The translations under genes were made by a program, and so were the position numbers. A stretch of DNA of 9,907 nucleotides from a virus (Duplodnaviria; Heunggongvirae; Uroviricota; Caudoviricetes): the IMG/VR virus record IMGVR_UViG_2534682160_000014. One strand, written 5' to 3'. The notes beneath the pieces were generated by a model, which saw only the letters and a program-made list of their open reading frames with translations, was not told the DNA's origin and did no database searches. Position 1 is the stretch's first letter. Each line of letters begins with the position of its first letter. Shown piece by piece: positions 1,739 through 5,960 of the stretch.

Positions 1739-1944
1739 ATGGAAGCAATCAAAAAAGTCATCTTTCGCCAGGAAGTAAAAAACTTATCCATATTAAGGCA
1801 GACAGCACGCTGCAAAGCATGATCAACGCCGGAGAATTCCCGCAGGGTTTTCGTGTCGGTTTGCGCCGTCGCGGATGGTATGAGGAAGACGTAATCGCAT
1901 GGATGAAAGAACGCGAACAAGAAGCGCGCGGAACGACCGCTTAA
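1739..1944 (+). pseudogene. alpA: AlpA-family (phage transcriptional regulator) gene, apparently disrupted by a 1-nt frameshift in an A6 tract, or a sequencing error at the homopolymer
   Basis: ATG at 1739 with an SD (GAGGT, 1726-1730) opens a frame reading MEAIKKVIFRQEVKN... that stops at TGA 1820-1822. The AlpA-like HTH and C-terminus (…DSTLQSMINAGEFPQGFRVGLRRRGWYEEDVIAWMKERE…) are in the -1 frame, open from 1688 to TAA 1942-1944 but with no ATG/GTG/TTG start upstream of 1819. The frames can be joined at A6 (1777-1782); one extra A gives a continuous 68-aa AlpA-like protein. Confidence 0.55.
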
Positions 1945-1969
1945 CATATATAGGGCAAATGATGAACAT

Positions 1970-1995
1970 AAAAAAAGCGGCCCCGAAATGGAGCC
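1970..1995 (-). terminator. Probable intrinsic terminator for the leftward operon ending at 2066
   Basis: On the minus strand: GGCUCC-AUUUC-GGGGCC hairpin (includes a G-U pair) followed by a U7 run (plus-strand A-run 1970-1976). Lies ~70 nt downstream of the minus-strand stop at 2066-2068. Confidence 0.4.
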
Positions 1996-2065
1996 ACCTT
2001 TCTGAACAATTAACCCGCTGCGCCGTATGTGTCAACAATCATAAGCCTGGGCATGATAACCGCGA

Positions 2066-2269
2066 TCAGGCTGGTGGGCAATTATCTTTCTTGTTGGGGC
2101 CGTATTGTGCTGCCATTTTCATCCGTTCAGAACGTGAATATTTTTTTAGAAACTCATCAAGGACAAAAGCGCATGGTGCGAATCTTTCTGATTCATGCTC
2201 GAGCGCCATATTTTCGTGCTCTCTGTTCGTTTTTTGCGATGGTGTATCGATTGATTCTTTATTGGTCAT
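2066..2269 (-). CDS. Hypothetical small protein (67 aa), second gene of leftward module B; paralog of the 2720..2947 product
   Basis: ORF MTNKES…NCPPA. The start ATG is 9 nt downstream of the conserved 44-nt element. It shares the MTN start and an internal C-A-x-x-x-x-E-x-L block with the 75-aa paralog. Confidence 0.5.
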   Translation of the reverse strand: MTNKESIDTPSQKTNREHENMALEHESERFAPCAFVLDEFLKKYSRSERMKMAAQYGPNKKDNCPPA

Positions 2270-2277
2270 TGTGTGTA

Positions 2278-2321
2278 CCTGTAAAGCAATGCGCCGTAGT
2301 ACCTCACGCCACGGCGCTGAT
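2278..2321 (-). repeat. Conserved 44-nt intergenic hairpin element, copy 1 (between the RHH stop and the small-protein start)
   Basis: mRNA sense: AUCAGCGCCGUGGCGUGAGGUACUACGGCGCAUUGCUUUACAGG. 7-bp stem GCGCCGU/ACGGCGC, 13-nt loop containing GAGGU. Matches 2956-2999 at 43 of 44 positions, with identical placement (begins 5 nt after the upstream stop, ends 9 nt before the downstream ATG). Confidence 0.7.
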
Positions 2322-2326
2322 GTTTT

Positions 2327-2500
2327 TTATCCTTTGGGTTCAATACCGCGTTGCTGTAATTCTTTTCGGAGTACTCGCTTGATCCAGGTGGCTAAAGAAG
2401 TGTCACCGTCTGCTTTCGCTGCCTCTTCAAGTTGTGCTCTGAATTCTTCTGGTAGCCGCATTTGGTATGGAGGCGATCGCTTTTTCAATGGTGTTGACAT
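2327..2500 (-). CDS. Arc/Mnt-like ribbon-helix-helix transcriptional repressor (57 aa)
   Basis: Not in the ORF track (short). Translation from ATG (complement of 2498-2500): MSTPLKKRSPPYQMRLPEEFRAQLEEAAKADGDTSLATWIKRVLRKELQQRGIEPKG. The PYQMRLPEEF beta-strand followed by two helices matches the Arc-type RHH pattern. The start codon sits inside a palindromic operator. Confidence 0.7.
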   Translation of the reverse strand: MSTPLKKRSPPYQMRLPEEFRAQLEEAAKADGDTSLATWIKRVLRKELQQRGIEPKG

Positions 2501-2546
2501 GGTAATTACCCTTAATTACTATAGTTACATGGTAATTACCATTGTA
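2494..2546. promoter_or_regulatory. Divergent promoter/operator region of module B
   Basis: Perfect 10-bp palindrome ggtaattacc at 2501-2510 and 2531-2540 (each preceded by acat), plus a partial copy taattac at 2514-2520. Plus strand: TTGACA (2494-2499) - 17 bp - TACTAT (2517-2522). Minus strand: TTGTTT (2568..2563) - 16 bp - TACAAT (2546..2541). Operators overlap both promoters and the RHH start codon. Confidence 0.6.
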
Positions 2547-2562
2547 CTTACCGTTATACAAA

Positions 2563-2609
2563 AAACAACGCCCCGCAGTGGTGGCTCACATACGGGGCGT
2601 CTAACCAAA
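2563..2609. repeat. Conserved hairpin element M2, copy 1; terminator-like on the minus strand and 5' leader on the plus strand
   Basis: Outer stem cgccccg (2569-2575) / cggggcg (2593-2599), inner stem gtg/cac, variable apical loop. On the minus strand it is followed by UUGUUUUUUGU. The paralogous copy at 3303-3349 has identical stems and a different apical loop. Confidence 0.6.
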
Positions 2610-2680
2610 CCATTAATTGAGGTAACGATTATGGCTATAAAAGAGCATAGCTTACTCTTTATACACACACAAACGCCCCG

Positions 2681-2700
2681 GAAACGGAATAATCCGTTTC
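2681..2700. terminator. Hairpin (8-bp stem gaaacgga / tccgtttc, loop ATAA) just downstream of the 2720..2947 minus-strand gene; possible terminator or attenuator
   Basis: Perfect inverted repeat seen directly. U/G-rich sequence follows on the minus strand and a T-rich stretch on the plus strand. Function not resolved. Confidence 0.35.
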
Positions 2701-2719
2701 ATAGTTCGGTTTTGTGTAC

Positions 2720-2947
2720 TCATCCTGGCGGGCGATTCTTACGGGACTTTAGCCGCCGTGGGCAGCTTGCTAAAAATGCCTCCAACGCGAATAGTCCAGG
2801 TTTCATTTCTATCGGTATTAGTTGGATATTCAGAGGATTAGCCAGTTCGGCTTCAAGGCGAGCACAGGTTTCTAACTGCCTTTGCCGAATGATTTCATCT
2901 TCTTGCGTCTGCGTGTCTTGTATTGGTGATAGTGTGTTGTTGGTCAT
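2720..2947 (-). CDS. Hypothetical small protein (75 aa), second gene of leftward module A; paralog of the 2066..2269 product
   Basis: ORF MTNNTLSPIQ…; the ATG is 9 nt downstream of the conserved 44-nt element copy 2. Confidence 0.5.
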   Translation of the reverse strand: MTNNTLSPIQDTQTQEDEIIRQRQLETCARLEAELANPLNIQLIPIEMKPGLFALEAFLASCPRRLKSRKNRPPG

Positions 2948-2955
2948 GGTACTGC

Positions 2956-2999
2956 CCTGTAAAGCAATGCGCCGTAGTACCTCACACCACGGCGCTGAT
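2956..2999 (-). repeat. Conserved 44-nt intergenic hairpin element, copy 2
   Basis: Differs from copy 1 at a single loop position (GGUGUGAGG vs GGCGUGAGG in mRNA sense). Same spacing to the flanking stop and start codons. Confidence 0.7.
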
Positions 3000-3004
3000 A
3001 GTGA

Positions 3005-3184
3005 TTATTCTGATTCTTTGGCCTTGCGGCGCTGGCGGCGTTTGATCTCGCCTTTTGCTGCCGTAACTAGAAATCCGGCGGTACTTTCGCCAGGTTCTTT
3101 AAGTTGCTCAATATCGGTCATTACCTCATGCGGGATTCTGACCGTTGTCATTTGTGATTTTGCGTTCTTTGCACCTGTTGCCAT
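3005..3184 (-). CDS. Ribbon-helix-helix-like small DNA-binding protein (59 aa), first gene of leftward module A
   Basis: ATG (complement of 3182-3184) preceded by SD AGGAGAA. Translation MATGAKNAKSQMTTVRIPHEVMTDIEQLKEPGESTAGFLVTAAKGEIKRRQRRKAKESE has a beta-strand (TVRIP) plus two-helix pattern and a basic tail. The 220-aa track ORF 3005..3667 is a spurious upstream extension. Confidence 0.6.
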   Translation of the reverse strand: MATGAKNAKSQMTTVRIPHEVMTDIEQLKEPGESTAGFLVTAAKGEIKRRQRRKAKESE

Positions 3185-3204
3185 TTCTGGTTCTCCTGAT
3201 AATC

Positions 3205-3297
3205 GGTGTATTTCAGTATACGCAAAAAAAAAGATAAAAAAAGTCTTGCGGTGTATTTCACTTGAATGTAGATTTAAAAATGAAGGTGAAATACACC
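3205..3297. promoter_or_regulatory. Divergent promoter/operator region of module A
   Basis: ggtgtatttca at 3205-3215; ggtgtatttcac at 3250-3261 with its perfect inverted partner gtgaaatacacc at 3286-3297 (24-bp spacer). Plus strand: TTGCGG (3246-3251) - 17 bp - TAGATT (3269-3274). The operator sequence is different from module B. Confidence 0.55.
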
Positions 3298-3302
3298 TAA
3301 AA

Positions 3303-3349
3303 CAACAACGCCCCGCAGTGATGGGAACACATACGGGGCGTCTAACCAA
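3303..3349. repeat. Conserved hairpin element M2, copy 2
   Basis: cgccccg (3309-3315) / cggggcg (3334-3340) with inner gtg/cac. T-rich on the minus-strand 3' side. Followed on the plus strand by an SD (GAGGAG) and the ATG at 3371. Confidence 0.6.
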
Positions 3350-3370
3350 CAACGTAAACGAGGAGCCGTT

Positions 3371-3571
3371 ATGGTTGCCGTAAATCATACCCCACACCTT
3401 GTACACACACAAACTGCCTTTGTGTGGCGTTTTCTGGCACTGAGTGCCGGAGAATCTCAAATCATCCACGTAACCGCCTGGACGGAACGCGAAGCGCGTA
3501 ACCGTTGCCCGTCCGGTTGTGTTGCTGTATTTGCCGCCCGTATTCGCCAGGGGGAAACCTATGCACAATAA
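3371..3571 (+). CDS. Possible leader ORF (66 aa) at the head of the rightward operon
   Basis: ATG with a good SD. The N-terminus MVAVNHTPHLVHTQT parallels MAIKEHSLLFIHTQT at the equivalent site in module B (ATG 2631). The rest has no recognisable features and overlaps the next gene's start. Coding status uncertain. Confidence 0.3.
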   Translation: MVAVNHTPHLVHTQTAFVWRFLALSAGESQIIHVTAWTEREARNRCPSGCVAVFAARIRQGETYAQ

Positions 3572-4254: not shown

Positions 4255-4554
4255 ATGAAACTTAAATATTCTGGCTTAACTGCCAGTGGCAACACTCACC
4301 CTAAATTTACGCGCGGTGATATTTACCGCGACCAGTACGGCGGCACGGTAATGATTAAGGGCGTGGCGGGACGGTGCGTAACTTACCGCCGTGAAGGTTA
4401 CGAATATGATTGCGTGATGCCTGTTTATCAGTTCCGGCGTGATTTTTCTCTGGTACAGACCGCGCCGCATAACGTGCCCACCAGCAACGCCAGCGCACGG
4501 GCAAACATCCAGAAGCTGAAAACCATGATTAACGGATTCAGGGGTAAAAAATGA
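4255..4554 (+). CDS. Hypothetical protein (99 aa)
   Basis: ATG 4255 with upstream GGAGAA. The stop overlaps the rep start (ATGA at 4551-4554), indicating translational coupling. Confidence 0.55.
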   Translation: MKLKYSGLTASGNTHPKFTRGDIYRDQYGGTVMIKGVAGRCVTYRREGYEYDCVMPVYQFRRDFSLVQTAPHNVPTSNASARANIQKLKTMINGFRGKK

Positions 4555-5960
4555 AACTGGCACCGAACGTAAAACGATTACCGAAAGATAAATACACCGA
4601 TGCGATTATTTTTGCGGGTATTGATGCTCATTCATTCGCAGAGCATTACATCATTGCACAGGCCAAAAAAGCAGGCGATCCAGTCCCTCCCGTTTATCTG
4701 GGGCGTTATCAGTTAAGCGAACTGGATAACCTCCAGATTGTTGATGATGGGCGATACAGGGCGACGGTGATACGTGCCGGAAATATTGAAGAGCCGCAGC
4801 TGTTAACCATCGCCACGAAACTGGCGATCGCCGGAGTCCAGGAGGCGCGGCTACTTTCTGAAAATTTAGAATTGCTGGAGGAATGGAGCGACCAGCTTCC
4901 ACGGCTTAGGGAGGCATGGGAACGCGGGGAAAGCCTGGTCATGAAAAAAATCCCCCAGCGAAAAACCAAGCTACCGATGAGCGTTGGATCTACCGGATAC
5001 GACACACAGCTTGATTACGTGGTAAAGGGGATTATTCCGGCATCGTCGCTTTGCAGCATATACGGGGCGAGCGGTTCCTATAAATCATTCCTTGCCGGAT
5101 CGTGGGCGTGTCACGTTTCCACGGGCCGCCAGTGGGGAGGCCGCAGGGTGGCGCATGGCGCTGTTCTCTATGTGGTTGGTGAAGGCGGTATAGGCGTTCC
5201 GCGTCGTGTAAAAGCCTGGGAGGTTGTGCACGATGAGCAGGTGAAAAATCTGTATCTGGTAAACCGTCCCATCTTTCCGGCTGCCCCGCTTGATATTGAT
5301 GAAATGGTTATCGCTGCCAGCCAGGTGGAGCGGGAAACGGGTAAACCGGTCCGAATGATTATTCTGGATACGCTGGCGCGTTGCTTTGGCGGCAATGATG
5401 AAAATGATTCCCGTGATATGGGGGCGTTTATCCGTGGGTGTGACGAACTGAAACGGCGCACAGGGGCCACGGTGCTGGTGGTTCACCATTCCGGCAAGGA
5501 TGAGACGAAAGGCGCGCGCGGTTCCAGTGCATTTCGTGCATCACTGGATGCTGAATACCGGATACGCAGGGAGGACGCAGGAAGCGAAGCGCTGGTTATC
5601 TCATGCACCAAAATGAAGGACGCGGAGGAACTCAAAGAAGCCGCATATGACTTACGCGTGGTGGAGCTTTTTACCGACGCTGACGGTGAGTTAATCACGT
5701 CGCTGGTGGTGGTGGATAAGCCGCGCCCTCCCGTTGAACTGGAGCGCATCGAGGAGGCAGGGAACAAGACGGAGAATCACGCCGCGCTATGGCAGTGCAT
5801 CAGAACACGAACAGCACACGGGGAGGCGTGCACTATCGCCCTTCTCCGCGACGATATGAAAAAGCTGGGGTATGAGATGAAGCACTTCCGGCGCTGGCTG
5901 TACAAGCTGGAAAATGATGGCGTAATCGTTATTGACGGTGATGACGTGCGCCCGCTGTAA
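4551..5960 (+). CDS. Replication initiator / helicase-like ATPase (RepA / AAA_25-like, RecA-fold) of the island
   Basis: 469 aa. P-loop-like GASGSYKS (5064-5087), and HHSGKDETKGARGSSAF, a motif typical of RepA/DnaB-like AAA_25 ATPases. An iteron array starts immediately downstream of the stop. Confidence 0.75.
   Translation: MKLAPNVKRLPKDKYTDAIIFAGIDAHSFAEHYIIAQAKKAGDPVPPVYLGRYQLSELDNLQIVDDGRYRATVIRAGNIEEPQLLTIATKLAIAGVQEARLLSENLELLEEWSDQLPRLREAWERGESLVMKKIPQRKTKLPMSVGSTGYDTQLDYVVKGIIPASSLCSIYGASGSYKSFLAGSWACHVSTGRQWGGRRVAHGAVLYVVGEGGIGVPRRVKAWEVVHDEQVKNLYLVNRPIFPAAPLDIDEMVIAASQVERETGKPVRMIILDTLARCFGGNDENDSRDMGAFIRGCDELKRRTGATVLVVHHSGKDETKGARGSSAFRASLDAEYRIRREDAGSEALVISCTKMKDAEELKEAAYDLRVVELFTDADGELITSLVVVDKPRPPVELERIEEAGNKTENHAALWQCIRTRTAHGEACTIALLRDDMKKLGYEMKHFRRWLYKLENDGVIVIDGDDVRPL

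Follow-up and report, generated by a model that had tools for sequence, protein, structure and literature searches.

Two small genes in the regulatory cassette of a phage satellite

The virus record IMGVR_UViG_2534682160_000014 comprises 9,907 nt (the window, i.e. the whole stretch of DNA analysed), and is an E. coli-type phage satellite. The leftward-transcribed regulatory cassette of this satellite contains two small open reading frames (ORFs) on the minus strand, encoding proteins of 67 aa (2066–2269) and 75 aa (2720–2947), each located exactly 57 nt downstream of a gene of the ribbon-helix-helix (RHH) type, as had been noted in the first-pass annotation of this DNA. The 67-aa protein, of a type designated F1, has a disordered N-terminus, a conserved core (HESERFAPCAFVLDEFLKKY) and a variable tail, and the 75-aa protein, of the F2 type, consists of an N-terminal helix (residues 10–36), a Pro-rich linker, a motif helix (FALEAFLA) and a basic tail (PRRLKSRKNRPPG). 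Their predicted isoelectric points (pI) are near neutral, at 6.7 and 7.8, respectively. Terminators were found downstream of the small ORFs, that of the 67-aa ORF being a terminator-like hairpin with U-run at 1962–2000 on the minus strand, recognised by reading of the sequence and from an Rfam alignment below threshold, of which it forms the terminator part.

The coding potential of the small ORFs was assessed in 136 instances of a junction with its ORF, taken from 122 loci in E. coli genomes, IMG/VR and assemblies; 134 of these instances had an intact ORF of 57–78 codons, the exception being one truncated variant of 49 codons with two occurrences. Indels were multiples of three, the positions of start and stop codons were conserved, and substitutions within the conserved motif were conservative in the sense frame (F/Y, L/V/I and E/D). 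The pooled ratio of nonsynonymous to synonymous polymorphism (pN/pS) was 0.20 for the F1 core versus 0.74 and 1.94 in the shifted frames, and 0.37 for the F2 core and tail versus 1.6–1.8 in the shifted frames, with the sense frame giving the lowest value among all six frames in both cases. The middle part and tail of F1, unlike its conserved core, had a pN/pS near 1. Judged by these substitution patterns, both ORFs are genuine protein-coding genes. We considered whether they could be artefacts of a long open frame on the opposite strand (described below), and rejected this since the sense frame has the lowest pN/pS and since the similarity between the two protein types is seen only in the sense translation. 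PGAP annotation leaves the small ORFs uncalled in several genomes; in locus L003 both are annotated, as hypothetical proteins.

AlphaFold2 (AF2) predicted helices at residues 26–43 and 46–56 of the 67-aa protein, with a mean predicted local distance difference test score (pLDDT) of 67.8, and gave a mean pLDDT of 70.8 for the 75-aa protein. The models consist of helices with disordered segments between them and have no globular fold.

BLASTP did not return any alignment between the 67-aa and 75-aa proteins. Profile comparison paired FAPCAFVLDEFLKKYSRSE (residues 30–48 of the 67-aa protein) with MKPGLFALEAFLASCPRRL (residues 48–66 of the 75-aa protein), with PCAFVLDEFLKKYSR / PGLFALEAFLASCPR as the shared block. 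With enlarged family alignments, hhalign detected homology over the full length (probability 96.7%, E = 3.8e-10, 56 columns), and the bridging members P0028 and P0033 have their N-terminus in common while differing in core type. A joint profile recovered both types in an exhaustive search of 1.84 billion proteins, yielding only 16 cluster representatives. The similarity between F1 and F2 is confined to the sense frame, with probabilities of 5% or less for the three antisense-frame translations, and the motif [FY][AVSGI]L[ED].[FY][LV] has no match in a six-frame translation of the window other than these two ORFs. The profile alignments and bridging sequences thus establish the two proteins as true, distant paralogues, bearing out the paralogy proposed in the first-pass annotation, while the register proposed there (CAFVLDEFL versus CARLEAEL) was displaced from that of the profile alignment. 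The MTN start cited in support of paralogy is common to both proteins, and lies inside a 75-nt DNA repeat, so that it is not independent protein evidence. Similarly, the supposed basic Cys-Pro C-terminus stands in so far as both C-termini share R[ML]K...PP[AG], whereas the Cys is not a conserved residue of the family.

The direct DNA repeat (D1, 75 nt, 83% identical) covers 2259–2333 and 2937–3011 and contains the stop codon of the RHH gene, a hairpin and the MTN start. The two junctions each have a 57-nt spacer on the minus strand. In copy 1 (2270–2326) the hairpin GCGCCGTGG-CGTGAGGTA-CTACGGCGC (2317–2291) is followed by ATTGCTTTACAGG and then the ATG, with a folding energy of -21.8 kcal/mol (z -2.5), and in copy 2 (2948–3004) the hairpin (2995–2969) was flagged as terminator-like, with 12 pairs, a tail ATTGCTTTAC and a folding energy of -24.3 kcal/mol. 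The hairpin has its terminator-like appearance on the mRNA-sense strand. Among 75 variants the junction was the most conserved DNA of the cassette, with a nearly invariant TGAGG loop. The corresponding position in a distant metagenomic relative is taken by an unrelated stem that has a clean U-run. No real Rfam family was found at E ≤ 1 for the junction hairpin or for the hairpin in the leader of the icd gene described below. In complete E. coli genomes the hairpin-plus-start element was found at 2076 places in 1577 of 5426 genomes, in nearly every case where a YlcI/YnfO gene ends, and a search of genome contigs with the hairpin matched only one Shigella genome, indicating that the element is species-restricted. 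The RHH stop codon of either module shares its phase with the ATG of the small ORF that follows, and the 19 codons separating the two contain no stop. A fusion of the RHH and small proteins by stop codon read-through was considered and not adopted, as this is implausible for UAA stop codons and the phase is better explained by the antisense frame.

The FALExFL family and its association with RHH genes

F1 and F2 belong, as divergent members, to a single undescribed superfamily of 55–92 aa proteins, which we refer to as FALExFL. The N-terminal part of these proteins is variable and charged, often with a ..I[IL]ERQREK.. helix or an RKRRRRK run, and is joined by a variable, often Pro-rich linker to the conserved core, an amphipathic helix with the pattern P-x-x-[FY]-A-L-[ED]-x-[FY]-[LV]-x-x-[YC]-x-R, which precedes a basic tail often ending in RPPG. 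The combinations of N-terminus and tail are mosaic among the members. Four features characterise the family: the motif with basic tail, a length of 55–92 aa, a position between alpA and the icd operon, and a junction hairpin upstream; all four were found for both window ORFs. There are about 64 family clusters at 90% identity, the named ones all being E. coli or Shigella 'hypothetical proteins' and a few unnamed ones deriving from metagenome reads, and a metagenome scan mainly gave further human gut metagenome contigs with close relatives. The family is nearly confined to the regulatory region of E. coli and Shigella phage satellites, where it is found between alpA and the icd operon on capsid-forming phage-inducible chromosomal island (cf-PICI), PICI and P4-like backbones, and tblastn against 50,697 GenBank phage records gave no match.

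That the first-pass annotation recognised no family agrees with the database searches, since there is no curated family and the sole match was that of the 67-aa ORF to PHROG 21027 (E = 2.5e-12, residues 1–48), for which no function is assigned; the 75-aa ORF had no PHROG match. The RefSeq 'hypothetical protein' entries WP_000182303.1 and WP_012601535.1 represent the same proteins, and neither these nor PHROG 21027 record a function, the motif or the link between F1 and F2. Nothing meaningful was found for either small protein in Pfam, NCBIfam or PADLOC, with a match to Cas8g2 discarded as noise (15.8 bits versus a cutoff of 125), and the sequence and profile searches of the PDB and the Foldseek search of BFVD with both AF2 models were without matches. 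The profile and structure searches suggested earlier have therefore revealed the paralogy and no characterised family, and the absence of toxin-family matches, together with models of helices plus disorder, agrees with the earlier impression that the proteins are unlike classical toxins. Searches of the literature on YlcI/YnfO and cf-PICI repressors, and with peptide strings, did not find a description of these genes. One further database sequence, P0022 (83 aa, on a 1577-nt contig), is a chimeric ORF consisting of the C-terminal 25 residues of the 75-aa protein and AlpA sequence; since the window has the 75-aa gene and alpA on different strands, a rearrangement or an assembly artefact is its probable origin.

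The small proteins had also been proposed to be partners of the RHH protein encoded upstream, and this was not borne out. The RHH variants and small-protein variants reassort freely, with F1 or F2 subtypes behind one and the same RHH variant, one YlcI variant preceding five different small-protein subtypes, and the 67-aa type of the window being found behind either Arc-type or YlcI-type genes. The commonest member of the family, P0066 (at least 1000 contigs), has the hairpin and no RHH gene upstream. Furthermore, arrays of 2–4 diverged paralogues occur (L117, 3258–4247; L124, L125, L150–L154, L156 and L120), most copies having their own junction hairpin, with no interleaved RHH genes. The reassortment, the RHH-less copies and the arrays indicate that the hairpin belongs to the small gene and that the 'partnership' with RHH genes is positional, and argue against a cognate co-repressor, as had been suggested, or a toxin-antitoxin pair, making either role unlikely.

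RHH genes, probable operators and an antisense open frame

The RHH gene of module 1 (2327–2500, minus strand, 57 aa) matches the Arc-like repressors of PHROG 228 (E = 4.9e-7) and gives a Pfam Arc match below the Pfam cutoff (E = 0.0076) and a weak match to the RHH protein AmrZ (3qoq, E = 0.24); its score for NF041551 (E = 4.9e-4) is only 20 bits versus a cutoff of 30, and it is therefore better described as Arc-like. The RHH gene of module 2 (3005–3184, minus strand, 59 aa) belongs to the YlcI/YnfO family (NF041551, E = 3.9e-17, 62 bits versus a cutoff of 30; PHROG 949, E = 1.3e-19). Two palindromes ATGGTAATTACC(AT) are found at 2499–2542 (4 matches versus 0.07 expected), overlapping a σ70-like rightward promoter at 2494–2522 detected by promoter scan, and exact copies of GGTGTATTTCA at 3205, 3250 and 3287(-), within 3205–3297 (3 matches versus 0.15 expected). 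The ATGGTAATTACC palindromes are probable operators of the Arc-like protein and the GGTGTATTTCA sites probable YlcI operators. As each RHH protein has its own repeated sites facing the rightward promoter region, they look like switch repressors with two specificities. Among YlcI-type proteins (L008–L119) there is a 59-aa form and a 101–103 aa form with an inserted C-terminal helical segment (..ARRQAEGSGENPLVSSLDALAQVEKIG..), and both end in an RRKAKESE tail, whose codons are part of the conserved junction DNA.

Divergent from the YlcI gene, an Icd-like gene (3371–3571, plus strand; NF033153, E = 7.4e-18) opens the rightward replication and packaging operon, which continues with small ORFs, DUF4222, a RepA-family helicase (4551–5960), SSB, a ClpP-like protease and an HK97-type capsid protein. 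A hairpin CGCCCCG..CGGGGCG immediately precedes the Shine-Dalgarno sequence and ATG of icd, within a repeat conserved between 2560–2608 and 3300–3349, and the repeats D2/D6 and an alignment with 3300–3420 show that 2560–2680 on the plus strand is what remains of a second icd leader, with this hairpin, the Shine-Dalgarno sequence and the first ~16 codons of icd. Read from the minus strand, the hairpin runs into a stretch of T and has the look of an intrinsic terminator; the copy at 2560–2680 is thus predicted to end the YlcI/75-aa transcript, and the element could act as a leader of the icd operon, serve as an insulator terminator, or do both. A C4/CI-type antisense RNA was considered for the icd leader and is unsupported, as no Rfam family was found at E ≤ 1. 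By its remaining parts, module 1 (2327–2720) is an orphan second immunity cassette, which of icd has kept only the leader and the first ~16 codons, and it may serve in the repression of heteroimmune satellites. Double modules are present in about a fifth of related loci, and the Icd-like gene in nearly all cassettes.

On the left, the window starts with an integrase gene (1–1242), and an AlpA-like gene (about 1739–1944) precedes the regulatory cassette. Relatives in complete E. coli genomes adjoin tRNA-Pro/yejM or roxA, with the gene order unchanged. The capsid module and the AlpA gene of the window match the cf-PICI family (10.1101/2022.09.08.507074), and current descriptions place E. coli PICIs and cf-PICIs under the control of the activator AlpA (10.1101/2022.09.08.507074; PMC11773190). 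Compared with the otherwise identical genes in L002 and L003, the alpA-like gene of the window has a 1-nt deletion in an A7 run (about 1777–1782), causing a frameshift which may make the island non-inducible, or which may alternatively be a homopolymer sequencing error. The sequence immediately upstream of alpA (1705–1718) is 86% complementary to the YlcI operator region at 3204–3217, and may be a further repressor site acting on alpA.

On the plus strand, an open frame of 494 codons (1899–3383) runs antisense to the two RHH genes as well as the two small ORFs. It begins inside the 3′ end of alpA and has its stop codon 10 nt past the icd ATG. When synonymous codons were permuted in the four minus-strand genes, the frame was stop-free in only 1.8% of trials, and when the intergenic pieces were shuffled it was never stop-free in 5000 trials (mean 12 stops); its openness in the window is not due to chance. 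An antisense frame of 204–765 codons was open in 97 of 97 distinct contexts (loci L001–L122; Arc-type, YlcI-type, RHH-less and array variants), versus 5.2–6.5 stops per 100 codons in the other two frames of the same strand, and in about 60% of contexts it runs on in the icd frame to the stop codon of icd. The product of the frame has no Pfam or PHROG match and is not conserved between cassette types, so selection seems to favour openness rather than a protein. The antisense frame would also account for the invariant 57-nt spacers and the common phase of the four minus-strand genes. Translation-dependent anti-polarity is known from the c4-icd-ant operon of phage P1, and by analogy it is plausible that RNA polymerase travelling from alpA across the cassette to icd would need ribosomes behind it.

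Possible roles of the FALExFL proteins

We tentatively favour a role of the small proteins as trans-acting docking or adaptor proteins which serve in the immunity region as anti-repressors, anti-activators or interference factors, which is possible given the combination of a conserved amphipathic helix and tail with a variable N-terminus and linker, the arrays, the mosaic recombination, the restriction to satellites and the placement in the repressor unit. The small genes are assumed to be transcribed from the repressor promoter via partial read-through of the hairpin, and such an attenuated repressor transcript would give a low level of small protein in the quiescent island. One conserved partner, either of the host or of the island, would be recognised by the conserved helix and tail, and target specificity would come from the variable N-terminus, so that the proteins would be accessory immunity or interference factors and not cognate co-repressors or toxins of the adjoining RHH protein. 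Several observations weigh against this. Confidence in the AF2 models was moderate (predicted template modelling score 0.33–0.38), no promoter could be detected ahead of the RHH-less copy, and the N-terminal RKRRRRK run in many members fits nucleic-acid binding as well as protein docking. Covariation in the junction hairpin was weak (89.9% of cells paired, 2 double changes, not above shuffles), and for this reason we do not claim a structured regulatory RNA. In addition, the antisense open frame itself had pN/pS values of 0.37 and 0.58, and as it has third codon positions in common with the small ORFs, constraint on the two strands is not fully separable by pN/pS.

The immI region of phage P22, with Arc and the antirepressor Ant, resembles the satellite cassette in that a small RHH gene is followed in one transcription unit of the immunity region by the gene for a product that acts, or in the satellite would act, in trans, and both window ORFs likewise have an RHH gene 57 nt upstream on the same strand. 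It differs in that the satellite proteins are only 55–92 aa, without an Ant/AntA, KilAC or Bro domain or such a PHROG, in that the satellite cassette has a terminator-like hairpin between the genes, and in that its downstream gene reassorts independently of the RHH gene and also occurs without it. Small helix-based modulators are known from phage λ (CIII, 54 aa, which inhibits FtsH), the satellite RS1 (the antirepressor RstC, 74 aa) and P4 (epsilon), and these are alike in size, in having one conserved amphipathic helix in a loose structure, and in mapping to the regulatory region of a temperate element or a satellite; unlike these, and without sequence or profile similarity to them, the satellite family forms arrays in which most genes have a hairpin of their own.

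The reading nearest to the adaptor role makes the small genes 'morons' for exclusion or defence, or else counter-defence genes, which the repressor transcript of the quiescent island would carry and whose targets would be incoming phages or competing satellites. They might be likened to rexAB beside λ cI or Acr genes beside Aca, and their location at the end of the repressor transcription unit, the diverged arrays, the hypervariable flanks of the core (pN/pS near 1), the free reassortment of modules and the restriction to satellites would all fit. This overlaps the adaptor role and differs in the target alone, and we consider it rather unlikely, with no PADLOC match, since largely disordered proteins of ~60 aa are rare among known defence effectors, and a motif common to all paralogues is unusual for Acr-type proteins. 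Somewhat more doubtful is an RNA-binding function like that of λ N or HK022 Nun, in which an Arg-rich N-terminus would bind the junction or icd-leader hairpin and modulate termination or translation. As with N, Nun and the nut site (boxB), a small, basic and largely unstructured protein is encoded just downstream of a conserved hairpin, many F1 members have an N-terminal arginine run (ARKRRRRK, within SPARKRRRRK at residues 11–20), and the pI of most family members is near 10; moreover, the hairpin with its nearly invariant loop precedes most gene copies, is terminator-like, and has one-sided stem changes which are G-U compatible only on the mRNA-sense strand. However, both window proteins lack the arginine run and have near-neutral pI values, the strongest conservation is in the hydrophobic FALExFL helix and not in a basic region, the hairpin is larger than boxB and terminator-like with no significant covariation, and there is no homology with the N or Nun families.

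Three other explanations have far less to recommend them. The Icd-like gene in nearly all cassettes could suggest host-directed modulators of cell division, for instance mimics of the FtsZ C-terminal peptide, as the tail of E. coli FtsZ (..DYLDIPAFLRKQAD) is presumably similar to hydrophobic-x-[IL]-x-x-F-L-x-K followed by basic residues. We regard this as improbable, since the pattern is short and low in information, and the conserved Pro of the FtsZ peptide is absent from the family pattern. It is more improbable still that the ORFs are non-functional, with their conservation a by-product of selection on the antisense frame or on RNA or DNA elements: a conserved stop-free frame does cover them on the opposite strand, with the partial confounding of pN/pS through third codon positions noted above, and they are often uncalled by PGAP, whereas the lowest pN/pS of six frames, the between-family similarity in the sense translation only, the conservative motif changes and the conserved start and stop positions all count against this. 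Least credible is a type II toxin-antitoxin pair with the RHH protein as antitoxin, which has in its favour the order of the genes and an intergenic hairpin that would reduce the relative dose of the downstream product. Against it, the RHH and small proteins do not co-vary, there are copies and arrays without any RHH gene, Pfam, NCBIfam, PADLOC and PDB gave no match to toxin families (RelE/ParE, CcdB, MazF, Doc and others), the predicted structure is one of helices plus disorder, and the RHH operator repeats face the icd operon as expected for a switch repressor.

The adaptor role of the FALExFL proteins and the antisense open frame could be combined in a two-strand switch, an idea which is speculative and on balance unlikely. 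In the quiescent state, the minus strand would yield the RHH repressor and, past the leaky hairpin, one or more FALExFL adaptors, which would be the effectors of that state by holding AlpA or a helper-phage factor in check. After AlpA-driven induction, the long plus-strand frame antisense to the cassette would be translated, the ribosome-coupled RNA polymerase would cross the repressor cassette from alpA to icd and escape Rho polarity, and head-on interference would silence the repressor and adaptor genes. A switch of this kind may not have been described for satellites.

The cassette combines an RHH repressor and its putative operators with a conserved hairpin and one to four FALExFL proteins, and is located between alpA and the replication operon. 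Roughly 29% of the complete E. coli genomes carry it, and no mention of it was found in the literature searched. The family is both undescribed and common in E. coli. If the FALExFL proteins are indeed adaptors or antirepressors, they would be candidate determinants of the specificity of induction between helper phages and satellites, or of immunity between satellites, and the antisense open frame offers a testable idea of how induction may override the repressor cassette.

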